Shown piece by piece: positions 2,291 through 31,636 of a stretch of DNA of 64,000 bases. This DNA comes from Candidatus Latescibacterota bacterium. Lineage in GTDB: Bacteria > Latescibacterota > UBA2968. Location: positions 6,400,001-6,464,000 of the forward strand of contig OZ240241.1 of assembly GCA_965198115.1 (NCBI GenBank), written 5' to 3'. Made by a program: the position numbers and the translations under genes. Each line of letters opens with the position of its first letter. Within the stretch, counting starts at the first letter, position 1. The notes under the pieces were generated by a model, which searched no databases, was not told the origin of the DNA, and worked only from the letters and a program-made list of their open reading frames with translations.

Positions 2291-3552
2291 GTACTCCTGT
2301 TCTCAAATACGGTGACGTATTCTAAGCAGACTTTGCCAAGGGCGTATCGTAGAACCTGAGTTTGTCGATCATCTCCGCGAGATCTGTTCGTGTGAACTTC
2401 CATTTGAAGGGTGTGGCGATACGTCCGTAGCGTTCCTGAAAACCGAGGATTCTTGCCTCAAGCTCTTCGAGCGATGCAAATTCGATAGGTGTCAGAGCCT
2501 TGCGTTTGAGGATCGAGAAGTAGATCTCGATCTGATTGAGCCAGCTTGCGTGGATCGGAAGGTGAACGGGGTGGATGTTTGGCCACTTCCCCTGGATACG
2601 GTCGATGCATGTTTGCCCTCGGTGCGAGGAGCCATTATCCACGATGAGGTAGACTTTCTTTGCCGAGCAATAGGGTTTCCGGCTCATGATCAGGCTCAGG
2701 AGCCGGTTGAAGGGCTCGATACCCGAAGAAGACTCACAGAGACCGAAGATTCGACCATTGTGCACGTCGAGAGCAGCCAGATAGGCCAGGGCTCCTTTCC
2801 GCTCGTATTCGTGTTTCAACGCGTGCCGCTCTGTTCGAGGCTGGCGGTAGGGTAACGTGCTTGCGAGCTCGTGCTTGAATACTGGTCTTTTCGTCGGCAG
2901 AAAGTACATATTCCCTCGGCCCTAAAGGCTTTCCTTGCCATTGGCGGTGATACAGATCAAGGACTCTACCTGCTTTGGTTTGGAAGTCCGGGTCCCGTGG
3001 GAAAATCCAGGAGCGATGATACCAAGGACGAATCGCGTCCTCGTTCAACCAGCGCCAGACAGTGGCGCCGCTGATCTTGGCAACGAAGCCCCTTTGCACT
3101 GCCTCGGCGGCAATCTCGGAACAGCTGAACCGCGAGAGCGGTATCCCGCTCTCGCTCGGTAGTTCACACGCCAGCGCCTTGATCTGAACGACCACCTGAG
3201 GGGGGAAAACCGGGCGGGCGCCCGGGACGAGATCTATCTTCGAGTCCCGAAAGACGCTCTTCGAAAAAGCGCTTACGCCATTTGCTTACGATCGGACGCG
3301 GGACATCCAACCGTTGGGCGATAATCTTGTTGGATAATCCCTCGGCGGCGAGAAGCACGATTTTCGATCGGATCACTTGATAATACGATAACGTATATTG
3401 TCCAGCCATTCGCTCGAGGTCGACCCGTTCCTTCTCAGACAGTAGCACCACATAAGGCGAATGTCTTGGCATTGTTCTCCTCCTTTTGAAGGAGAACATA
3501 AGCTACAAATAATGTTCAGAACATACGTAATAATGTTTATGAAACCATGCAC
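2291..3552 (-). mobile_element. IS630-family insertion sequence
   Basis: TA at 2289-2290 and 3553-3554; imperfect terminal IRs (GTACTCCTGTTCTCAAA / GTGCATGGTTTCATAAA); HTH and DDE ORFs inside. Confidence 0.85.
2322..3499 (-). CDS. IS630 transposase split over three frames (3164-3499, 2734-3195, 2322-2909)
   Basis: HTH with GRP motif, then SADEKTSIQ, IVDNGSSH, ASWLNQIE. First shift at TTTTCCCCCC (~3200) is probably programmed; second at ~2817 is probably a mutation or error. Confidence 0.85.
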
Positions 3553-3994
3553 TAAGGGAAGCGCCCACTCGAAGGGCGGTGGTGAGACAGTCGCGTCGAA
3601 CGCCCCGACGACGTTTCCTTGTAGGTGAACGTGTTCCACCCCGGCGAGAGAAAACCGGCCGCTTCACCACTCTGTCGGATTGGGAAATCTCTACGGTTCT
3701 GCCTGCCCCTACAGACTCCACTGCGCAAATACCAGGCAGCGTCATATGCGAAGAAAGGACAGGGCCGATCGGAGGGGGCGTGCCGCTTTGCTATGGATCC
3801 TACAAAGTCGTCGTTGATGCTTACCGGTTCGGCGTGTGCTCCCATATCCTGAACGTGGTCCGGAAGGGGAGGGTATTCGCAAGCCTCATAAAGTCTCCAG
3901 TGGTCCGGTAGCCAAAGCTGTTCCATCCGGCCACGTTTCCGCTTAATCCTATGGCAGCCCAGGGATGGGCCGTCTTTTCTGGCACCGGCATGGC

Positions 3995-4081
3995 ACTTAA
4001 CGTTTCAGGGTTTGCGACGCGCGGCGTAGCCGCGAGTGGGTGGACGGGTTCGGGGTACGGTGCGCAAGCCCGCAGTTAGAC
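3995..4081 (-). repeat. attC-like site 1 (after the GNAT cassette)
   Basis: Gene strand GTCTAAC...GTTAAGT; inner stem GGGTTTGCG/CGCAAGCCC; 12 bp after the stop codon. Confidence 0.85.
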
Positions 4082-4093
4082 GGAGTCCCCTTG

Positions 4094-4834
4094 TCAGCTC
4101 AGCCATGGATACAACGCTTCGTAAACATCCGACTGAACATACCCCAGTTTCTCTGCTAGGCCGACCGACTCTGAGTTTGAGGCATTCCAGTGCGGTTCTA
4201 TTCCGCGTTTCAGGCAGTATGTGATTAGAGTTGTGCACACCGCGGTCGCGAGGCCTTTCCGTCTGTGATCAGGATCCGTGCCTATTTCTATCTCGATGGC
4301 TTCGTCAGTTTGAGTGTAAGAATAGGCTTCGCAGACAACCTTGTCCTCGTTGAGGGCGCAATACCCAACCCCCTTTTCCAGCAAGTCGAGAGGTGAATGG
4401 GCACTCATGCCATCCGAGACGAGGTCTTCATCGATTCTGAGAATCTCATATCCTTCCGGGATCGATCTGCTGAGTTTCACCAAGTGATCAATGTCCAGTC
4501 CGTAGAAGTCAAACCCAACACGCTGCTGTTTACGAAGCTTGTCCTTGTAGAAGGCGATGACTAGATCACGCCACAAATCGCACTCCGGGATGAACATTGT
4601 GTCCGAGAGTTCCCGGAGAAATCCAGAAGCGAGGGCACTGTCCTGGTTACCCGCCAGAAGTGTGAAGTACCCAAACTTCAACACGACAACTTCCGGGTTG
4701 CTCGCTGAGTCGGCAAGCGCCGAGCCGTAGCCATGACCAATAACGGCGTCGATGATTACGCGTTGGCGCCTATGTCCAGCAAATAGTGGTGCCAGCCCGG
4801 ATCTCGAATCAGGAGTGATCGGGACAAAGTCCAA
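4094..4834 (-). CDS. GNAT family N-acetyltransferase (cassette gene)
   Basis: EIEIGTDPDHRRKGLA acetyl-CoA motif, PHWNASNSESVGLAEKLGY. Confidence 0.85.
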   Translation of the reverse strand: MDFVPITPDSRSGLAPLFAGHRRQRVIIDAVIGHGYGSALADSASNPEVVVLKFGYFTLLAGNQDSALASGFLRELSDTMFIPECDLWRDLVIAFYKDKLRKQQRVGFDFYGLDIDHLVKLSRSIPEGYEILRIDEDLVSDGMSAHSPLDLLEKGVGYCALNEDKVVCEAYSYTQTDEAIEIEIGTDPDHRRKGLATAVCTTLITYCLKRGIEPHWNASNSESVGLAEKLGYVQSDVYEALYPWLS

Positions 4835-4880
4835 ATTAATAACCCAAGATTTCTGGGGGTTTCTGAGTTTAGGGGATTCC

Positions 4881-4981
4881 GGCTAACGTCCTGCCATACA
4901 CGACGGCGGCGGAGTGAAACGGAGCCGCTGTGCCCGAGGGGCCAAGGAGCGAAGCGACGCAGCGTGTGTGGTTTGTTATAG
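4881..4981 (-). repeat. attC-like site 2 (after the serine hydrolase cassette)
   Basis: Plus strand GGCTAAC-GTCCTG-CCATACACG...CGTGTGTGG-TTT-GTTATAG. Confidence 0.8.
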
Positions 4982-5022
4982 GATGTGCCAGCCCGGGGTG
5001 GAGAGGATGGGCTCATCCGGAT

Positions 5023-6210
5023 TTATGATATGGAATCATACAGCGCTCGTATCACCCGCGTCTTAGACATTTCAATTGGGCGATTCACGCGCAGCTTAGG
5101 AGGCTGATCGGAGAGTGTAAACATGTGTAGCAGAGTTTTGGTATATCCAAAGCCAAGCTTGAGTTGAGGATCGGCAAAGCCCGTTGCGCCACCATAACCA
5201 TCATGTCCAAAAGCTCGCAGATTATTACCATAGTAGAATACTTGATCCTGCTTACCAGTGTTTCTTTGATAGCCCAAAATGCGAGGAGTTTCTTGACGTA
5301 TGCCAAACGTCTTATTCATGAACACGTCCGGTAGATCAGCCTGGTGGGAGAATATCACGTTAAGATGGTCATTTGAAATCAACCGACATCCGTCCACTTC
5401 TGAAACAGTCGCTGCATAATGTTTAGCCAAAGCACGAGCTGACGCACTAATATTGCCACCAGGGATTTCAGCAGACCTCACGTGAGGATGGGTGAATATA
5501 GCACCTAGAGGTTCATCCACAGGAGGAATAACCTCAAAGAAAATGGGATCGAGTTCAGGTAAATCCTCTTCGTTAACTGGTGCATCATAGGCCATGGCCA
5601 TCCTCTCTTGTGCTTCTGCAGGAGTACCAAGGAATAGTTCATTTTGGATATTCAAAGGAATGGCTATTTCGTCTCGGACTAATTGCCCCAGAGTGCGACC
5701 ATCGACTCGTTTTACCAGACCAGCTAAAACCCAACCTATTGTCAATCCATGATAGCAGGACGTCGTTCCAGGCGTAAACATGGGTTCCAATTTGGCTGTT
5801 TCCTCAACAACACGCTCTAAATCACACCACAGGTCCGGGGGGGATATGTTGGGCAAAACGGGCGTCTGGGGAATGCCTGCTACGCTATTCATGACCTGTG
5901 AAATCGTTATCGATTCTTTGCCTGCTACACCAAACTCAGACCAGTAATGTGCGACAGGTTTCTCGTAGTCGATCAACCCCCGTTGGGCCAACATGTGGAA
6001 AGCCGTTAAAATGGGACCTTTAGAGCAACTGAATATGGTGAACAGGGTCTGAGGGCTGACCGCTGTGCTCGAATTCTCCGCGACAACACCCGCAACACAA
6101 TCAGCTATAAGCTCACCATCTAAGTATACGGCGGCCTGCAACCCCACCTCGTGGCCAGAACCGACAAGGTCATCTAATGTCTCTTGAATCACAGACTGTA
6201 TATCAGCCAT
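5023..6210 (-). CDS. Serine hydrolase, beta-lactamase class C/EstB-like (cassette gene)
   Basis: FSCSK (SxxK), YHG, FGHDGYGG motifs; GGAGG RBS; visibly AT-richer than the surrounding genes. Confidence 0.85.
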   Translation of the reverse strand: MADIQSVIQETLDDLVGSGHEVGLQAAVYLDGELIADCVAGVVAENSSTAVSPQTLFTIFSCSKGPILTAFHMLAQRGLIDYEKPVAHYWSEFGVAGKESITISQVMNSVAGIPQTPVLPNISPPDLWCDLERVVEETAKLEPMFTPGTTSCYHGLTIGWVLAGLVKRVDGRTLGQLVRDEIAIPLNIQNELFLGTPAEAQERMAMAYDAPVNEEDLPELDPIFFEVIPPVDEPLGAIFTHPHVRSAEIPGGNISASARALAKHYAATVSEVDGCRLISNDHLNVIFSHQADLPDVFMNKTFGIRQETPRILGYQRNTGKQDQVFYYGNNLRAFGHDGYGGATGFADPQLKLGFGYTKTLLHMFTLSDQPPKLRVNRPIEMSKTRVIRALYDSIS

Positions 6211-6250
6211 TAGGTCAACCTCCCGCTTTTTGGTTTTGGGCTGGCATTTC

Positions 6251-6338
6251 CGCTAACGTTTGAGGAGCCGCGACGCCGCCGAAAAGGCGGTGTGAGTGGT
6301 CGGGTGAGGCTGGGTTACCCGCGGCTCCGGTGTTAAGA
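6251..6338 (-). repeat. attC-like site 3 (after the MBL cassette)
   Basis: Plus strand CGCTAAC-GTTTGA-GGAGCCGCG...CGCGGCTCC-GGT-GTTAAGA. Confidence 0.85.
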
Positions 6339-6370
6339 GCCGTGCCTGGATCCAGAAGTAGTACCCACCA

Positions 6371-7368
6371 CTATCGGGCAAGGTTCATAGGACTGATGCC
6401 TTCACCAAGTGTGAAGGTTGCCCCAACGGCCCCGACCACACAGGTCGGCCGTGACAGTTCTGCCCGATCCCGGATCTGATATACTGCTTCAAGTCCTGTT
6501 CAGTGGGCTCCGATCAAGTGCTGCAATCCAAATTCTCTCAGATTGCGTGAAGTCCACTCGAGATTCTCGTCGTCAGCACGGAGTAGATGGAAACCGCCCA
6601 GTGCGGCGTGGATGGGGGCCTGACGAACAATGCTTCGACTATACTCCAGCGTATTGATCATGCCAGCGTGACCACAGCCAGATAGAATGACAAGGCCTTG
6701 GTCGGTGTCGATTACAAGTGACTGGCTCTCAGGTATGTTGTCCGGGGTGAGCCCTGTCTCGGTTTTTAGCTTGGCCGAAGTACCCCAGTTCCGTTCGGGG
6801 TGTGGTCTGGGCACCGGTCCTGTGGGCCATACGCCGGGAAAGAGCTGAGATGGCTTGTCGTGTTGGATGACGACTCCGCCTGTCGCCTCGTATTCGGATC
6901 TCATTCGAGCCATTCGGTTTGTCCGCTTGGTGCCATCGGCACGATAGCGATCGAGAAAGATGCCTTCTGCGACGTGGGCTCTGGATAGGGCCGTAGGGTT
7001 CTTCTGCGACAGCTCAGTGCGAAGACGGATCAGCCCACCGGTGTGTCACTATGGTTGTGGCTGAGAACCACGTCGGTGATGTCAGAGAGATCTATATCCA
7101 GCGTCTTCGCATTTCTGAGCACGGTGTCCGGCCATTGCCCGGTATCGAACAGGATTCGCGTCCCATCGGCTTCTACGAGTGCAGCGAAGCCCCACTCGCC
7201 GATTCCACGGAATGGCGATGCCAACATGGTGGAGAGAACCACGATGTGCAGATTCTTGACTCTGTGTCCATTCTCTTCCGCAGATACAATTCTACCCTCG
7301 AGTACAGGGATAACCAGAGAGACGATTAAGGTGCCCAGGAAAGCACGCACATATCTTTTCTGTGTCAT
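6371..7368 (-). pseudogene. Secreted MBL-fold metallohydrolase (COG1237-like) with a frameshift and an in-frame TGA
   Basis: EWGFAALVE, ILFDTG, SHNHSD(H)TGGL (1-bp loss at ~7045), SGCGHAG, GGFHL, GAH-TGA-TG; frame continues to TAG at 6371. Confidence 0.8.
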
Positions 7369-7428
7369 CTCGTTCTCCCGGGGTGAGGATCAAGGTTTGA
7401 TGACTCGCGCGGGTCGGTTAGGCATGGC

Positions 7429-7517
7429 GCTTAACGATCAAGTGTTCCGCGACGCCGTGCGAAGCACGGTGTGGTTGGATCGGGGTTGGGAGGGGTTCGC
7501 CGGACACGAAGTTAAGC
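7429..7517 (-). repeat. attC-like site 4 (after the MotA-like cassette)
   Basis: Plus strand GCTTAAC-GATCAA-GTGTTCCGCGA...TCGCCGGACAC-GAA-GTTAAGC. Confidence 0.85.
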
Positions 7518-7555
7518 GCCGATACATGGCTCATTCACTCAGACTCGAAGGGTCT

Positions 7556-8082
7556 CTACATATGCACGATTGCATCAATGATCATCCGTGAGAGCCAGAC
7601 AAGCACTACCAGTAGCAGCACGGGAATCACCTCCGAGGCACCCCCGTTTCTCGAACCATCTGACAGAACACCTTCCAGACGATACTGAATAGGAAGACAG
7701 ACTCCGTAGCCTAACAGGGCGCTCAAGAATAGGGGGACCATCGCGGTCTGGAGGCCGAGCCCAAATGACTCACCTCCGATTGCGGGTAAGTTCGACATCA
7801 ATCCGATCAACGTTCCTAGACAACCTCCGGAAATAGCGAAGACGCGAGTGTTTCGCCATCCGCAAATCGCCTCACTTGTCTCTTTCTCGGAAAGCGTACT
7901 GGCCCACAGAGACCGGGCAAGAAGGCGAATCGATGTCCGACTGAGCAGAATGCAGCCACCAGGAAGCCCCACAGATAGATGTGGGAGGGTGTGTCCCAAA
8001 ACAGGTAAGGCTTCCCCGGGCCACTAGTCAATGTCATTAGGACAACGATGACTAGGATCAGGACGAATCCGATGATCCCCAT
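7556..8082 (-). pseudogene. Small membrane protein, MotA/TolQ/ExbB-like, frameshifted (cassette gene)
   Basis: N-terminal TM plus FWDTPS in one frame; GCLGTLIGL...FGLGLQTAMVPLF...LPIQYRLE in another; GGAGG RBS. Confidence 0.55.
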
Positions 8083-8194
8083 TACGACCTCCTAGCTCGG
8101 TTTCTGAGGCTTGAAGGACCAGATTAAGAGACTCGAATCTTGGTGTGCGAGAGACTCTCACTGCCGGTTCGTGTAGGACTTGTCTGGCATTGGC

Positions 8195-8278
8195 GCTTAA
8201 CGTTCTCGCCGCTTGCGAACCCGCGCAGCAGGTTGGGTCGAAGCCCGCAGGGCTGAGCCGAAAGCGGTCGTGTTATAG
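8195..8278 (-). repeat. attC-like site 5 (integrase-proximal)
   Basis: Plus strand GCTTAAC-GTTCTC-GCCGCTTGCG...CGAAAGCGGT-CGT-GTTATAG. Confidence 0.8.
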
Positions 8279-8492
8279 GATGTGCCAGCCGGGGTGGGGG
8301 GGTGCGGCCTTGCCAGGACGGCGAGGCCGCAAGAGTGAGCGTGTGTTGTGAAGGTACGTTAGGAGGAAGCAGCCGGACTCCCCGCCTTTTCCATCCTGAT
8401 CTCGGTCAGCGAGATAACCTGTATAGCAACTTCAAACACTGCCAGATTGGAAGGCAGGAAGTGTCACAGTGTATGTAAGTTGGGCTGGAGTT

Positions 8493-9866
8493 GAGCTATA
8501 ATCAAAAGGTGTGGAAAAAGAGAAAGGGCGACCCTACCCTTCCCGTGAGATAGTTGATTCACACAAAACCGGGTGAGAGGCCCGGTTGGGAAGGAGGATC
8601 GCCGTGAAGGAACATACGCATAGAGCCCCATTGAAGTCCATGCCGACGTGGGAGACGGTTGACGATTGGATCCGTGAAGAGATCCAGGGCCGGTTCCAGT
8701 CCATTCTGGAGGAGGAGGCGACCGCGTTCTTGGGCCGGTCGTGGTATGAGCGCCGAGCCGAGGTCGATAGCTCCAGGGGCTACAGGAACGGCTACGGCAA
8801 GCCCCGGCGTCTCTCGACGAGCTGCGGAACGATCAAGGTCCGGCGTCCCCGGGTTCGTGGTCTGGAAGAGCGGTTTGAAAGCCGCATCCTCCCCCTGTTC
8901 GCCCGGAGAACCAGGGCCATTGGAGATCTGCTTCCCGACCTTTATCTCCACGGTCTCTCCCAGGGCGACTTCGAGTTGTCTTTGCGTGCGCTGCTCGGTG
9001 ATGGCGCGCCGCTTTCGCCGACCTCGATCGCTCGTCTTCGAGGGAAGTGGGAGGTCGACTTCCAGGACTGGAAAGAAAGGCGTCTGGATAATCGCGAACT
9101 GGTCTACGCCTGGGCTGATGGCATCTACGTCAAAGCCGGGCTCGAGCGCGAGAAGGCGTGTCTGCTGGTCGTGATCGGCGCGATGAGCGACGGCAGTAAG
9201 GAGATCCTGGCGATAGAACCCGGTTATCGAGAGTCTACAGAATCCTGGCTCACGGTGCTCCGGGATCTCCGGGATCGCGGGCTCGAACATCCTGTCCTGA
9301 TCGCCGCGGACGGGAATATGGGCATCTGGGCGGCCGTTGATCAGGTCTGGCCAGAGAGCCGGCAACAACGGTGCTGGAACCACAAGATCCTCAACGTGCT
9401 CGACAAGGTCGCCAAGCGTGCACAGGCTGAAGCCCGCGCACTGCTCGTCCAGATCCCCTATGCCGGCACGAAAAAGGAGGCCGAGAAGCTCCGGAAACGC
9501 TTTGCCGCACGGTATCGCTCACAGTTCCCTGCCGCCGTGGAGACGCTCGAAAGAGACTGGGATCGGATGGTCACGTTCTACGACTTCCCGAAGGAACACT
9601 GGAAACACCTGAGAACCACGAACGTCGTCGAGAGCCCCTTTGCTTCCGTTCGGCTTCGCACAAACGCCGCCAGGCGATTCAAGAAAGTCAGGAACGCCAC
9701 GGCTCTCATCTGGCGTACGCTCAAGGTCGCAGAGAGCCGATTCAGGAAACTCACCGCGCCACACTTGCTACAACAAGTCTACGATCAGAAACACTCAACC
9801 GGACCGCAGGTCGAAGCCGGGAAGATGGCCGCCTGATTTCTTTTACACACCTATTGACCTGAGCTC
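8493..9866 (+). mobile_element. IS256-family insertion sequence
   Basis: IRs GAGCTATAATCAAAAGGTGTGGAAAA / GAGCTCAGGTCAATAGGTGTGTAAAA; 8-bp target duplication CTGGAGTT at 8485-8492 and 9867-9874. Confidence 0.92.
8586..9836 (+). CDS. IS256 (Mutator-type) transposase
   Basis: YRNGY, WADGIY, AADG, QRCWNHK, RTTNVVES motifs. Confidence 0.92.
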   Translation: MGRRIAVKEHTHRAPLKSMPTWETVDDWIREEIQGRFQSILEEEATAFLGRSWYERRAEVDSSRGYRNGYGKPRRLSTSCGTIKVRRPRVRGLEERFESRILPLFARRTRAIGDLLPDLYLHGLSQGDFELSLRALLGDGAPLSPTSIARLRGKWEVDFQDWKERRLDNRELVYAWADGIYVKAGLEREKACLLVVIGAMSDGSKEILAIEPGYRESTESWLTVLRDLRDRGLEHPVLIAADGNMGIWAAVDQVWPESRQQRCWNHKILNVLDKVAKRAQAEARALLVQIPYAGTKKEAEKLRKRFAARYRSQFPAAVETLERDWDRMVTFYDFPKEHWKHLRTTNVVESPFASVRLRTNAARRFKKVRNATALIWRTLKVAESRFRKLTAPHLLQQVYDQKHSTGPQVEAGKMAA

Positions 9867-9918
9867 CTGGAGTTGCTTTTGCTCTCCCATACTTTTCCCA
9901 TCACAAAAACCACATGGC

Positions 9919-9956
9919 TCTTAACTGCTTAGTACCGAACTAGTACAAAAAGTTCG
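9919..9956 (-). other. Putative attI-like site
   Basis: Gene strand CGAACT-TTTTGTACT-AGTTCG-GTACTAAGCA-GTTAAGAGCCATG. The GTT core resembles the cassette starts but has no attC hairpin; lies ~90-120 bp past the integrase stop. Confidence 0.6.
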
Positions 9957-10042
9957 CGCTCTGATCTCCGTGGCGCAAATGCCGTCGAAAGTGAGGGATC
10001 TGCGAAATGAGTTTCGCGAATGCTCCACTATGGTGATCGGAC

Positions 10043-10711
10043 TTAAGACGAACCGTCGTTCCCGTCCATCAGCTGATCAAGTGGGCTCCGGATCCGACCG
10101 ATATCGCGCTGGCTGACGTGTGTGTAGATCTCGGTCGTTCTGGAGCTTTCGTGGCCCAGGAGTTCCTGGATGTAGCGCAGGTCGGTACCGCCTTCGAGCA
10201 GATGGGTGGCAAACGAGTGACGCAAGGTATGTACGGATACCTGCTTGTCGATGCCCGCCTTCTCCTTGGCCCTCTGGAATACCTTCTGGACGGATCGTTC
10301 GTGGAGGTGCCGGCCATAACGCGCGCCGGGGAATAGCCACGTGCGTGGTCGGTACCGCCGCAGATATTCGCGTAGCGCCCCGAGGGCGAACTCCGAGAGC
10401 ATCGTATAGCGGTCCTTCCTCCGCTTCCCTTGTCGGACGAGGATCATCTTTCTGTCGATATCGATGTCTTCGCAACGCAGTCTGACAACCTCTCCGACCC
10501 GGAGCCCCGCAGAATAGGTGAGCAACACGATCGCTCTGTGTTTGACGTTGTCGATGGACTGAAGGATTCTCAGGGTCTCCTGCTGGCTGAGTACCCTGGG
10601 AAGCTTGTTTTCCTTCCGTGGCCGTGGCAGCCGCTCCAGCCGGTAGTTGCTCCGTAGCGCTCGATGATAGAGAAACTTGATGGCGCTGATACACTGGTTG
10701 ACGTAGGAGTG
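10043..10711 (-). pseudogene. Integron-integrase-like tyrosine recombinase, 5'-truncated
   Basis: Frame reads HSYVNQCISAIKFLY...LPRPRKENKLPRVLS...AGLRVGE...GKRRKDR...HTLRHSFATHLLE...LLGH...IYTHV. Catalytic R-K-H-R-H-Y intact; no start codon and no N-terminal SAM helices upstream of ~10711. Confidence 0.85.
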
Positions 10712-10995
10712 CGGCCAACCAGGGAGCGGGTTGTGGTTCTGTCTGCGCCCCCATATGTACTGAGTTGGGGGCGGCTACTCGGTGGTGGTACCGAGCACCG
10801 AAGTCGGGACTTCGCCGAGAGGGTGAACGATCCCTCGATACAGCGGGACCGACGGGTGCGCATCCAATGAAACGTGCAAGCGAATGCCAAAGACCGCTTA
10901 CTCGGGATGAGCGGAATCGCTGTGCTGTACCCCACCTTCCTTCTGCTTCTCAGGCTGAACCCAAGTCCGTGCTCTGGATGTTTGACAATGGAGAG
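10709..10995 (+). mobile_element. Structured non-coding remnant, possibly an IS110-family right end
   Basis: Five consecutive hairpins, ends in TTGACAATGGAGAG, begins where integrase homology stops. Confidence 0.4.
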
Positions 10996-11037
10996 TGGGT
11001 GCTGTATTGTTTTCCCAACGTTTGAACACTTGTTCAA
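10982..11037 (+). promoter_or_regulatory. Sigma70 promoter with ArsR/SmtB-type operator
   Basis: TTGACA (10982)-17 bp-TATTGT (11005); palindrome TTGAACA-CT-TGTTCAA (11022-11037) resembling SmtB/CzrA TGAACA boxes. Confidence 0.75.
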
Positions 11038-11050
11038 GTGAGGTGTCATC

Positions 11051-11407
11051 GTGTCGATCGACGTATGTGACATTCAGACCGTGGACGAGGCCCGTGTCGA
11101 AAGTGCGAGGCGGTCTTCTCCGTCCGTCACCCAGTATCAGACTCTGGCGGATACCTTTAAAGTTTTGAGCCATTCGACGCGGCTCAAGATTCTACACGCG
11201 CTTTCGCGGGACGAGTTCTGTGTCTGCGATCTGGCAGCGCTACTGGAGACGTCCGTTTCAGCCGTGAGCCACCAGCTGCGAATGATGCGGGCACTTCGTC
11301 TGGTTCGTAGTCGTCGCGAGGGGAAGCTCGTCTACTATGCTTTGGATGACGATCACGTGCGGCAACTTTATGCCGCCGGACTCGATCACGTGATGGAGGA
11401 GTCGTGA
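11051..11407 (+). CDS. ArsR/SmtB/CadC family metalloregulator
   Basis: FKVLSHSTRLKIL, EFCVCDLA, SAVSHQLR, YYALDDDHV. Confidence 0.92.
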   Translation: MSIDVCDIQTVDEARVESARRSSPSVTQYQTLADTFKVLSHSTRLKILHALSRDEFCVCDLAALLETSVSAVSHQLRMMRALRLVRSRREGKLVYYALDDDHVRQLYAAGLDHVMEES

Positions 11408-13548
11408 TGAATCAAGAACTTCATCTCGAGATCGAGGGAATGGACTGCCCCGGTTGTGTGGCGACGGTCGAGCGCGCCCTGACACACGTCCCCGGAGTCG
11501 TTTCGGCGAACGTGGCGCTGGTGACCTCGAGTGCGCGAGTGACGATCGAGCCGGCGTGCGAGGGGCGAGAGGCGCTGGTGTCGGCGGTGCGCGAAGCCGG
11601 CTACGGCGTGGCTGAGGAAGACGATGATGGCCATTGTGATGACGACCATCGCAGGGGTGTGAGGTGGCGAGGTCCTCGGAGCCTGACTGTTGTTTCGGGG
11701 ATTTTCTTCTTTGCGGGACTTGCGGGACAGTGGATCGGACTGGCGTGGGCCGTGGGCCCCTCGACTACGCTCGGGACAGGCTCTTGGCTGTGGGCGGATC
11801 TCTTGCTGCTGGCTGCTGCGACGGTGGGAGCAGTGGGTTTTCTACCTGCGGGGATACGAGCGACATTCCGGTTATCGTTGGATATGAACTTTTTGATGTC
11901 GGCGGCCATTATCGGGGCCGTGTGTATTGGGGAGTATGTCGAAGCGGCGGCGATTGCCTTTCTGTTCTCCCTGGCCGAGCTGCTGGAGGGTTACGCGGTC
12001 GATCGGGCACGACGCTCGATCGAGACGTTGATGTCGGTCGCACCGGATACAGCGACGGTTCAGCGAGATGGGCAGGAGGTTGTCGTGCCGGCCGAGGAGG
12101 TTGTTCCCGGTGATTGCGTGGTCGTTCGGCCCGGGGATCGGCTGGCCGTGGATGGTCGTGTGACGAATGGCGTCTCCGCGGTCGACGAGGCTGCGATCAC
12201 GGGTGAGTCGATGCCGGTGTCGAAGCAAATTGATGACGATGTGTTCGCGGGCACGATCAACCGGGAAGGTTATCTTGAAATCGAAGCGACGCGTCCGGCG
12301 TCCGAGAGTACACTCGCGCGAATCGTTTCGTTAATCGAAGAGGCGGAGAGCAATCGGGCGCCGAGCGAACGGTTCGTTCAACGGTTCTCGAAGATTTACA
12401 CGCCGGCGGTAACGGTCGCCGCGGTTCTGGTGACGGCGATTCCCACGCTGATATTCGGTGGCGACTTCGATTTATGGTTCCTGCGCGGACTGACGTTGCT
12501 GGTGATCGCCTGTCCGTGCGCGCTCGTGATTTCGACGCCGGTTGCGGTGGTGAGTGCGATTACGAGTGCCGCACGCCACGGCGTGTTGATCAAGGGCGGG
12601 TCGTTTCTGGAGGCGCTGGGAAGTACGAAGGTCGTCGCTTTCGACAAGACGGGCACGCTGACACAGGGGGAACCGAAGGTCACGGAGGTTGTCGCTTTCA
12701 ACGGTCGAACACGGGATGAAGTGATGATGGTTTCAGCGGCCCTCGAGCGCCACTCACGCCATCCTGTCGCGGAAGCGATCGTTTCACACGCAGGCGAACA
12801 GGAGCTTCCGGGCGTAGATACGTTCGAGTCGGTGACGGGTCTGGGCGTCCAGGGACGGGTTGGGAATGTCGTGTATAGAGTGGGTCGTGCCGAGATGTTC
12901 GATTTAGAGATTCCCGAACGGTTCGATACCCTTCGCGCAGATTCCCGCACCTCGGTACTCGTAGGGACGGAGTCGGAGATCGTCGGTGCGATCGTTGTGG
13001 AGGATACGGTTCGCCCATCTGCGAGAGAGACAGTCGGGGCACTAAAAGCGTTGGGCATTCGGACGGTGATGCTGACGGGCGACGATCCGGCGACGGCTGA
13101 ACGGATTGCCGAGTCGGTCGGTGTCGACGCGTGGCACGCCGAGCTCATGCCGGAGGACAAAGTGTCGCTTGTCGAGACGCTCGAGCAGGACTACGGTCAG
13201 GTAGCGATGGTCGGGGATGGCGTGAATGACGCTCCAGCCCTCGCTGCCGCGACGGTGGGTATCGCGATGGGGGCCCGCGGGACGGACACGGCGATCGAAA
13301 CTGCGGATGTCGCTTTGATGGGCGACGATCTGACGAAGATGCCGTATCTAATGCGCCTGTCCCGCTCCTCACGGGGCGTGATCCGGCAGAACGTCATTGC
13401 GTCGATTATCGTTAAAGTAGGCCTTGCCATAGGCGTTGTTCCGGGCTTCGTCTCGCTCGTGGTGGCCGTGTTGGCGGGCGATGTGGGGACTTCGTTGGGG
13501 GTGACGACGAATGCTTTGCGGTTGGCCGGGGTAAAACCCAAAGTCTGA
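11404..13548 (+). CDS. cadA: Cd/Zn/Pb-translocating P1B-type ATPase
   Basis: HMA domain GMDCPGC, TGES, CPC, DKTGTLT, HP, GDGVNDAP. Confidence 0.92.
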   Translation: MMNQELHLEIEGMDCPGCVATVERALTHVPGVVSANVALVTSSARVTIEPACEGREALVSAVREAGYGVAEEDDDGHCDDDHRRGVRWRGPRSLTVVSGIFFFAGLAGQWIGLAWAVGPSTTLGTGSWLWADLLLLAAATVGAVGFLPAGIRATFRLSLDMNFLMSAAIIGAVCIGEYVEAAAIAFLFSLAELLEGYAVDRARRSIETLMSVAPDTATVQRDGQEVVVPAEEVVPGDCVVVRPGDRLAVDGRVTNGVSAVDEAAITGESMPVSKQIDDDVFAGTINREGYLEIEATRPASESTLARIVSLIEEAESNRAPSERFVQRFSKIYTPAVTVAAVLVTAIPTLIFGGDFDLWFLRGLTLLVIACPCALVISTPVAVVSAITSAARHGVLIKGGSFLEALGSTKVVAFDKTGTLTQGEPKVTEVVAFNGRTRDEVMMVSAALERHSRHPVAEAIVSHAGEQELPGVDTFESVTGLGVQGRVGNVVYRVGRAEMFDLEIPERFDTLRADSRTSVLVGTESEIVGAIVVEDTVRPSARETVGALKALGIRTVMLTGDDPATAERIAESVGVDAWHAELMPEDKVSLVETLEQDYGQVAMVGDGVNDAPALAAATVGIAMGARGTDTAIETADVALMGDDLTKMPYLMRLSRSSRGVIRQNVIASIIVKVGLAIGVVPGFVSLVVAVLAGDVGTSLGVTTNALRLAGVKPKV

Positions 13549-30735: not shown

Positions 30736-30796
30736 TGGGGTCCTCGCGTATGTAGCCTGTCTTGAACGAACGTGAGAGGTGGTTCAGGGGGTGGTT

Positions 30797-31636
30797 TCAG
30801 GCTGGTTGGCCGTTGGAGACGATGGATTTGATGTCTTTGTAGGGTCGAACCTCGAGGAGTTCGCGGGTTTCGGGGTCGAGACGTTCGATGATTTCGTCCG
30901 GCCATTCCGTGCCGATCGTGTATTGCGGCATGTAGCGGAGGGTGAGGAAGCGACGATCGCGGTCTTGGGGTTTCCAGCTGAGGGCGCCGTGAGTGACCAT
31001 TTCGGAGATCATCGCGACGTCTCCTGCTTTCGGAGTGATGTTGGCCACACCAGCCGGGACATCGAAAGACCGGTAGTCCGGACTGTAACCTCCATCGGGG
31101 GATCGGCTCCCGGGATAGAAATACTCCTCCGGGCGGTCGAACTGACTCTTGTGCGAACCTGGGACGACGAGGAGGCCACCGTCGCCGGGATGGACGTCGG
31201 TGAGGTAGACGAAGATGACGAGGTGATCGCAGAGGACTCTGTCCTTTCCGATCAGATAGTAGGGCGCCTCGGGTCCACGCGTACCAGTCCCTTCGCGCTG
31301 GGAATGGAGGGGATGGAACTCGTGCGTGTGGTTGTTGATCATCAGGTTGCCACTCGTGAGGCGGGGCCGGTCGTGCATCAGCTCCAGTACGATCGGCCAG
31401 AAGGACGGATGACGTGTCAGTCGCTCGAGGGCCTTGTCGAAGGCGATCCCGAAGAAGTGCCAGATGAAGTGGTTGCGTTCGCGATCGACACGGAAGCCAG
31501 GCGGCAATTCGTCATCGGTGGTTCTCAGGTAACGCTCAGCCGCGTCCTGAGCGGCGGAAAGCTCATCAGACGTCAGCGCATCGGGGATGTGTAGGTAACC
31601 GGTCAGGTCGAAGAAGTAGCGTTGCTCGGGTGTCAT
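30797..31636 (-). CDS. PhyH-family dioxygenase
   Basis: MTPEQRYFFDLTGYL, LHSQ, VPGSHK, VTHG. Confidence 0.85.
   Translation of the reverse strand: MTPEQRYFFDLTGYLHIPDALTSDELSAAQDAAERYLRTTDDELPPGFRVDRERNHFIWHFFGIAFDKALERLTRHPSFWPIVLELMHDRPRLTSGNLMINNHTHEFHPLHSQREGTGTRGPEAPYYLIGKDRVLCDHLVIFVYLTDVHPGDGGLLVVPGSHKSQFDRPEEYFYPGSRSPDGGYSPDYRSFDVPAGVANITPKAGDVAMISEMVTHGALSWKPQDRDRRFLTLRYMPQYTIGTEWPDEIIERLDPETRELLEVRPYKDIKSIVSNGQPA

Follow-up and report, generated by a model that had tools for sequence, protein, structure and literature searches.

Can the hairpin sites of a gene-cassette array be recombined by an enzyme that lacks the I2 insertion, the feature that both defines and finds integron integrases and is held to be required for hairpin recombination? 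The question is raised by a stretch of 64,000 nucleotides (nt) from the genome of Candidatus Latescibacterota bacterium (assembly GCA_965198115.1, contig OZ240241.1, positions 6,400,001 to 6,464,000 of the forward strand), hereafter the window, where five attC-like hairpins separate single-gene cassettes and a nearby tyrosine recombinase gene is devoid of I2. Judged from sequence, the answer appears to be a qualified yes: we put at roughly three in four the probability that an integron-like array, likely served by I2-less tyrosine recombinases that would read other marks, has these five hairpins as its cassette sites. The system in the window is, on this evidence, a real if decayed member of a widespread integron-like system, with putative activity.

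Five hairpins in the window

An earlier note on this DNA described five AAC...GTT elements, each with particular 6-nt and 3-nt strings next to the stem, and all of these are present where they were placed (Table 1). They are read on the plus strand, the 'bottom' strand in integron terms, and the cassette genes all lie, co-oriented, on the minus strand. The further claim that all five share a 6/3 register holds for sites 1-4 in an ungapped test of 100 spacer combinations per site, but site 5 is best read as 7/4 and attains 6/3 only via a closing G:T pair. The stem, described as 9-11 base pairs (bp) without a bulge, indeed has 9 bp in sites 1-3 (with one G:T pair each in sites 1 and 2), but is mismatched in the other two: that of site 4 spans 11 columns, including one G:T and one C:C, and the minimum-energy fold puts a one-base bulge there, and that of site 5 contains one G:A mismatch. 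CGACG does occur in four of the five sites (CGAAC in site 5), although not beyond the stem, because its CG forms the last two stem pairs. The inner part is G-rich on the plus strand in every site, with a skew of 0.10-0.50.

When the 8.4-Mb genome was scanned for the 6/3 register, 17 matches were found (16 on the plus strand and 1 on the minus strand), against 0-5 for each of 13 other registers; five of the 17 make up the 4.3-kb array, and some six seem to be chance matches. With 49 sites as input, a covariance model, the check that had been proposed, recovers 18 sites in this genome at E <= 0.001, 12 of which are training sequences. Thirteen sites at this threshold lie outside the window array, in small groups split by insertion sequences and without a recombinase. 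In the standing array, the AAC/GTT crossover boxes of sites 1-5 are predicted to be only part-time paired on the plus strand (p = 0.35, 0.14, 0.27, 0.99 and 0.55). Short-read contigs from two runs are identical to window positions 3528-8519, with zero differences. As far as such comparisons reach, the five hairpins are genuine cassette-recombination hairpins.

Site rules across relatives

The rules that these sites follow become apparent from a survey of 177 sites in arrays of the same phylum as the source genome, 167 of them distinct and used for folding. If the spacer class is defined by the distances from the crossover to the CG that closes the stem, five classes can be delineated: 7/4 (90 sites), 6/2 or 5/1 (43), 6/3 (22), 6/4 (12) and a shorter one (5). 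Universality of 6/3 thus had to be rejected, 7/4 being the commoner register. The property that is retained is polarity: in 174 of the 177 sites, the spacer of the 5' arm on the bottom strand is longer by 2-4 nt. The stem consists of 9 uninterrupted bp ending at an invariant A, with 82-100% Watson-Crick pairs per position in the three main classes; compensatory changes are seen in 8 of the 9 stem pairs and 97% of the cells pair (49 sites). Folding of both strands, also proposed earlier, favored the bottom strand in 161 of the 167 distinct sites. The bottom strand has 134 GNA triloop mini-hairpins and the top strand 3; the unusual stability of such triloops in DNA speaks for folding of a DNA strand. 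Covariance model matches were detected in 81 of 151 genomes of the phylum.

Canonical aadA sites, analyzed as a control, share their 5' arm with the new sites (AAC, then 6 nt and 9 bp that close with CG), but the 3' arm has a 5-nt spacer and a bulged G (6/5). By this comparison, the new sites look like attC minus the extrahelical G and about two spacer bases. The lost G is the base described as contacted in trans by the I2 helix (PMC3053210).

Several side observations concern the sites themselves. Two Bacteroidota loci (L021:15936-16000 and L195:9479-12044) contain other registers, with a short spacer, a bulged base or a one-base offset, in the same arrays. Near-identical inserts of ~760 bp lie within sites in L182 and L183 (G097), L130 (G098) and L126 (G107), with at least 5 repeats in G097; in L182, Rfam identifies group II intron domains in the inserts, and group II introns that target attC exist as well. 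In a Chryseobacterium plasmid array (L139:16151-20766 and 30781-30922), a symmetric element of 140 bp, whose ends resemble AACGG...CCGTT, is present in four copies and might be a small element with the sites as its target.

A recombinase without the I2 insertion

The recombinase gene in the window is a remnant, 82% identical over 10046-10720 to intact 364-residue proteins and beginning at their residue 140, that retains every catalytic motif (R, H-x-x-R, H, Y); the gene is intact in relatives. The missing N-terminal part was not found anywhere in the source genome, and an assembly error was rejected as the source of the truncation, given that short-read contigs match positions 9841-12500 without differences. 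Because the enzyme is 5'-truncated, the array is probably immobile in this genome unless an enzyme arrives in trans. A second I2-less gene in the source genome (C1:3498425-3499267) is frameshifted in the assembly.

By both sequence and fold, the closest solved relative is the integron integrase VchIntIA (PDB 2a3v). However, the alignment gap leaves the family ~41 residues shorter than IntI1 over the I2 helix and the following hairpin, and the distance between the flanking motifs is 66 residues in 103 of 104 relatives compared with 106-107 in I2-bearing proteins. In a tree, 16 I2-bearing proteins occupy one branch (SH-aLRT 99), and 99 I2-less proteins, along with the window remnant and those linked to IS91, occupy another (96); this tree is the unrooted product of a quick search, in which 7 I2-bearing rows, mis-trimmed to 30% and labelled 'short', still grouped with the other 9.

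A profile built from relatives that carry it detects an N-terminal domain of ~70 residues, with two invariant tryptophans, in all 89 full-length relatives out of 120. The profile's top PDB match is the HARP domain of SMARCAL1 (4o66; E 3.4e-4), and Pfam HARP matched 4 of 9 relatives, 1 above the cut-off and 3 below it. HARP binds junctions of single- and double-stranded DNA. An Atlas search with this domain retrieved only unnamed clusters, under 0.9.

A candidate attI lies between the remnant and the array. Similar motifs are found beside 8 related recombinase genes, against a background of 0.048 per 700 bp. Among five HARP-less genes (L125-L128 and L134), four have the attI motif; four are divergent and one convergent to their own arrays, so that the orientation of the recombinase varies within the family.

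Linkage of site type to enzyme type

The suggestion that the sites co-evolved with the I2-less enzyme is supported in one respect, statistical linkage, and not in another, because 6/3 is not the conserved feature and the local enzyme is truncated. A co-oriented site lies downstream of 20 of the 23 HARP-bearing genes that have at least 3.5 kb of downstream sequence; these genes come from several phyla, Bacillota among them. Around 42 HARP-bearing genes, 68 co-oriented and 0 anti-oriented sites occur in 239 kb downstream, compared with 5 in 358 kb upstream. A scan of 79 GTDB loci without a preset register revealed an excess at offsets 2-4 only, in one orientation only. In Bacillota, 33 matches to the model, which was trained on the source phylum, were found in 10 of 13 loci, all downstream and co-oriented; in Bacteroidales, new-type sites were present in 10 of the 15 loci scanned; 32 IS91-linked relatives yielded 14 sites, 11 of them in one array. 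Conversely, 80 I2-bearing metagenome loci (421 kb) contain 0 new-type and 50 canonical sites, and 21 I2-bearing loci, 20 of them from the same phylum, gave 0 covariance-model matches. Related loci are not independent, so that these counts overstate the number of events. At the cut-offs used, the family gene is present in 133 of 301 genomes of the order Bacteroidales and in 21 of 301 Bacillota genomes. Cultured carriers include Flavobacterium aciduliphilum and Algibacter onchidii. One Bacteroidales locus (L206:4000-19000, G196) has 19 co-oriented scan matches, 18 of them new-type. Many of its 64-nt sites are identical, and the same cassette ends recur, which suggests that shuffling was very recent. 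Besides the asymmetric loop, to which strand choice had tentatively been ascribed, the sites and cassettes bear other strand-asymmetric marks, namely, the GNA mini-hairpins and a G:T pair in the outer arm considered below.

A proposed outer arm of the excised circle

The start of each cassette is complementary to its own end far beyond the 7-bp box, so that the arm extends ~14 bp past the crossover. In a set of 120 cassettes, 73-76% have positions 2-4 paired with their own start, compared with 31-39% for the start of the next cassette, and positions 9-16 form a mean of 4.4 pairs with the own start against 2.4 with the next. Position 8 is paired in only 3% of the 120; in 92 of them, A stands opposite C on the top strand, that is, T:G on the bottom strand. 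The same position is paired in 0 of 40 cassettes from other phyla, 0 of 26 from Bacteroidales and 0 of 11 from Bacillota. All four complete cassettes of the window have G:T at position 8. In 24 canonical cassettes, pairing fades past position 6, without a preference at position 8. The outer arm, which is absent from canonical cassettes, was not among the observations of the earlier note.

By the classical argument, complementarity between a cassette's own start and its own end confirms the crossover point and speaks for a circular intermediate. In the window, the predicted pairing of the crossover box rises from 0.13, 0.00, 0.43 and 0.99 in the array to 0.99, 0.73, 0.99 and 0.99 in the circle; over 118 cassettes, the bottom-strand value increases from 0.51 to 0.82. 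Since the arm could form only in the excised circle, these predictions suggest that it might be a directionality device.

Mobility

In relatives, cassettes have moved as units, with the crossover at G/TT (the slash marks the cut). One array of G061 contains two copies of an 880-bp cassette, 99.9% identical, which are cut at G/TTA and have neighbors that differ on both sides; another cassette has differing downstream neighbors in G056 and G059. The remaining 9 of 11 matching cassette pairs show no differing neighbor where this can be scored. G041 contains six copies (L132 and L172-L176, compared in two groups of three) of a 2,485-bp element that encodes an I2-less recombinase of its own and an IS91 transposase and ends in an unbulged site. 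These copies are flanked by GTT and GTTA and preceded by attI-like sequence. A related element of ~2.5 kb in G042, with the same components and terminal site, has three copies (L155, L156 and L177), likewise bounded by GTT.

On plasmid FJ012881.1 (L137:5001-7060), tet(X3) has a truncated I2-less recombinase (TnpF) on one side and a half site on the other. The unit starts with GTT at 5838 and ends with AAC at 7045; positions 1, 5-7 and 9-13 are paired, and A is opposite C at position 8. The second half of a site was not found at this unit in L137. Many Acinetobacter plasmids have recombinase matches over the same query segment. A 2021 comment states that no tetracycline resistance gene had so far been found in a cassette (PMC7784347).

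Alternative explanations and points of doubt

Could the sites instead be a divergent attC subfamily that is recombined by I2-bearing IntI acting in trans, with the I2-less genes as passengers or degenerate copies? An I2 segment is present in 22 of 168 genomes of the phylum, the canonical 5' arm layout (AAC, 6 nt, 9 bp, CG) is kept, an element with an unbulged site has integrated at an I2-type attI, and IntI1 is reported to tolerate the loss of extrahelical bases on some sites (PMC5027507). Nevertheless, no I2-bearing gene was found in the source genome, which is complete, and I2-bearing loci carry canonical sites instead; the I2-less genes are intact, conserved and uniform in length across the I2 region, and have a branch and an attI-like motif of their own. 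We regard this explanation as improbable.

We judge equally improbable the possibility that the I2-less enzyme acts on double-stranded DNA or extruded cruciforms through two conventional, Xer-like strand exchanges, with the hairpin as a dyad-symmetric binding site. This would suit an enzyme without the insertion that is described as needed for single-strand integron recombination (PMC7784347, PMC8138268), and the extended complementarity of the cassette ends does amount to a long inverted repeat. However, the stem sequence varies freely with pairing kept, and the tip between the two halves differs in length from site to site (whole sites measure 44-169 nt). Moreover, only one strand bears the G:T pairs, the purine skew and the GNA triloops, a bias that can be understood only if a single strand folds.

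That the elements are structured RNAs, terminators or repeats of the REP (repetitive extragenic palindromic) kind seems very improbable: they are intergenic and branched, with conserved unpaired residues, and RNA motifs are hard to distinguish from those of single-stranded DNA, as Weinberg et al. point out (PMC5737381), but the sites of the window and of 22 array loci have no match in Rfam, the strand that folds stably runs antisense to the genes, the breakpoints of rearrangements coincide with G/TT, and the outer arm pairs only across the two ends of one cassette. The Rfam matches to Flavo-1 and DUF805 do not coincide with the listed sites, and Flavo-1 and Clostridiales-1 are not supported as candidates.

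Several observations nonetheless weigh against service of the sites by I2-less enzymes, or against parts of that proposal. With regard to the enzyme, the site-rich G053, G056, G061, G103 and G104 gave no I2-less match at E 1e-60, and no I2 match either. Two copies of the G042 element sit at attI sites of I2-bearing integrons and one in a canonical attC, so that mixing of the two systems is possible, either because IntI takes the unbulged site as a substrate or because the enzyme of the element acts on foreign targets. IntI1 is reported to recombine attCaadA7 and attCoxa2 normally without extrahelical bases, although with a fall in strand selectivity (PMC5027507). The HARP assignment is weak at the level of fold (Z 3.7, rank 22, root-mean-square deviation 3.0, 47 aligned residues; the highest Z, 4.9, was to an unrelated protein), and HARP as a strict requirement is rejected, because the HARP-less genes also head arrays. 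The attI motif lies downstream of only 4 of 21 other genes checked, in addition to all 4 divergent cases. With regard to the sites, the scanners were tuned on this site type, and a few Bacteroidales sites score higher with one bulged base. In the circle, the box on the top strand is also often paired (0.26 rising to 0.66 over the same 118 cassettes), so that folding alone yields a weak strand bias. Finally, the short-read contigs contain no excision joint at G/TT, which is uninformative given that contigs drop rare variants.

If the I2-less recombinases do serve these sites, the mechanism might be as follows. Like IntI, the enzyme would cleave at AAC in the folded bottom strand, and cassettes would excise as circles. 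The outer arm would lock the crossover box only in the circle and hence favor integration over excision. Strand choice would be a joint effect of spacer polarity, the position-8 pair (G:T on the bottom strand, A:C on the top) and the GNA mini-hairpins, and the N-terminal HARP-like domain, present in most members, could hold the single-/double-strand junction in place of the I2 contacts.

Comparison with known systems

The resemblance to integrons (IntI1, VchIntIA, attI, attC) is extensive. Both systems combine a tyrosine recombinase with a single-gene cassette array, an AAC/GTT crossover and an attI (here a candidate only); both have a 5' arm with a 6-nt spacer and 9 bp ending in CG, a purine-rich, more stable bottom strand and GAA-type tips; and group II introns are inserted in the sites of both. 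In contrast, the enzymes described here lack the I2 insertion, have a shortened beta4-beta5 region and, in most members, a HARP-like N-terminal domain; the sites lack the extrahelical G, have a 3' spacer of 1-4 nt rather than 5 and, in the source phylum, form a three-way junction; the outer arm of ~14 bp has a fixed mismatch at position 8; and the recombinase is mostly co-oriented with the cassettes. The accepted definition of IntI includes an extra domain of about 30 residues (PMC7784347; bioRxiv 10.1101/2022.02.06.479319). Under that definition, the enzyme falls outside IntI and the sites outside canonical attC, although the layout is integron-like.

The closest system in print is the rAID-1 arrays of Bacteroidales, for which Ross et al. 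reported an XerD-like recombinase together with motifs between the genes that are described as reminiscent of integrons (bioRxiv 10.1101/471110; PMC12247911). Compared by description only, the two are alike in that a recombinase of the XerD family heads co-oriented short genes with repeated intergenic motifs. They differ in that rAID-1 cargo consists of immunity genes, whereas here it consists of enzymes, and the close homologues of rAID-1 are described as restricted to Bacteroidales. Among the Bacteroidales cargo, we found 1 SUKH protein in the 44 scanned of 99 open reading frames (ORFs), and a SUKH immunity gene lies among the sites of L195:9479-12044. Since the family is present in 133 of the 301 Bacteroidales genomes, rAID-1 probably belongs to it as one branch.

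In the 'integron-like' subgroup of tyrosine recombinases delineated by Smyshlyaev et al. (PMC8138268), the insertion is described as not fully conserved, while that study calls the insertion essential for integron function; 'attC' is absent from its main text. Tyrosine recombinases linked to IS91-family elements nest in the I2-less branch, and the basal ones have an unbulged site at their end and GTT as insertion point. Unlike these, the window gene has no adjacent IS91 transposase, only a distant fragment elsewhere in the genome, and the proteobacterial members have no arrays. The DUF1874 motif, proposed by Weinberg et al. in 2017 as an unusual attC (PMC5737381), is likewise multistem and occurs in consecutive intergenic regions, but there is no Rfam match to the present sites, and no integrase is seen beside the DUF1874 runs in that description. 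A literature search, largely confined to openly accessible papers, retrieved no description of these site rules or of an I2-less integron, nor was anything on this system found in the parts of PMC8618304 and PMC13579530 that it covered.

The balance tips slightly towards a broader conclusion, namely, that these arrays represent a second integron class in Bacteroidota, Bacillota, Latescibacterota, Gemmatimonadota, Ignavibacteriota and Spirochaetota, invisible to I2-based searches. Such a class would carry out hairpin recombination without an I2 helix, with the circle-specific outer arm and its G:T as a directionality switch and the HARP domain binding forks; it would be the origin of self-mobile recombinase-IS91 cassettes, include the gut rAID arrays and be the source of the tet(X3) cassette. 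If this is true, integron surveys miss whole phyla, and strand-specific recognition of DNA has been solved in a second way. The site rules (a 9-bp stem, an offset of 2-4 nt and the outer arm with its mark at position 8) constitute a search model and would give the rAID arrays a mechanism.

Cassettes and neighboring elements

The coordinates of the sites, cassettes and adjacent features are collected in Table 1. The top NCBIfam match of the serine hydrolase is the LipL esterase, under the cut-off. No family match was found for the hydrophobic ORFs of the 766-bp cassette, and there are no interbacterial immunity genes among the cassette genes of the window. No sigma-70-like promoter (Pc) was found on the cassette strand between 8200 and 11100; the upstream region is deleted.

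Table 1. Positions of the hairpin sites, cassette genes and associated elements (window coordinates, except for the last row)
Feature	Position	Strand	Remarks
Site 1	3995..4081	+	AAC...GTT 3999-4077; AAC, 6 nt, 9-bp stem closing in CG, branched tip, 3 nt, GTT; final site of the array
GNAT acetyltransferase gene (PF12746)	4094..4834	-	246 residues; cassette of 886 bp
Site 2	4881..4981	+	AAC...GTT 4885-4977; 6/3, 9-bp stem
Hydrolase cassette, 3' end	4975..4994	+	Complementary to own start (6238-6257); putative outer arm of the excised circle, G:T at position 8
Serine hydrolase gene, beta-lactamase fold (PF00144)	5023..6210	-	395 residues; cassette of 1370 bp
Hydrolase cassette, 5' end	6238..6257	+	Second half of the outer arm
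Site 3	6251..6338	+	AAC...GTT 6255-6334; 6/3, perfect 9-bp stem
Metallo-beta-lactamase-fold gene (PF00753 in the first part)	6500..7368	-	Split across two frames; cassette of 1178 bp
Site 4	7429..7517	+	AAC...GTT 7433-7513; 6/3, one C:C mismatch in the stem
Two overlapping hydrophobic ORFs (88 and 147 residues)	7556..8082	-	Cassette of 766 bp
Site 5	8195..8278	+	AAC...GTT 8199-8274; best register 7/4
IS256-family element	8493..9866	+	Transposase 8586-9836; inside the short first cassette; 8-bp target duplication 8485-8492 / 9867-9874
Candidate attI	9922..9956	-	CGAAC...GTTCG-N10-GTTA on the cassette strand, 105 bp past the recombinase stop; inferred crossover 9923-9925
I2-less tyrosine recombinase remnant	10043..10720	-	Co-oriented with the cassettes; catalytic domain complete; first ~139 residues missing (HARP-like domain and most of the core-binding domain)
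Further sites in the source genome	C1:3700367-3719322, 8093646-8098360, 5651729-5693160, 6398663, 8401738, 864426, 2247769, 74790		Covariance model, E <= 0.001

The split of the metallo-beta-lactamase-fold gene is present, letter for letter, in the short-read contigs. A frameshift-type IS630 element at 2322-3499 terminates the array, the IS256 element sits between the array and the recombinase remnant, and, where the 5' part of the recombinase would be, the window contains an ArsR regulator and a heavy-metal P-type ATPase (11051-13548).

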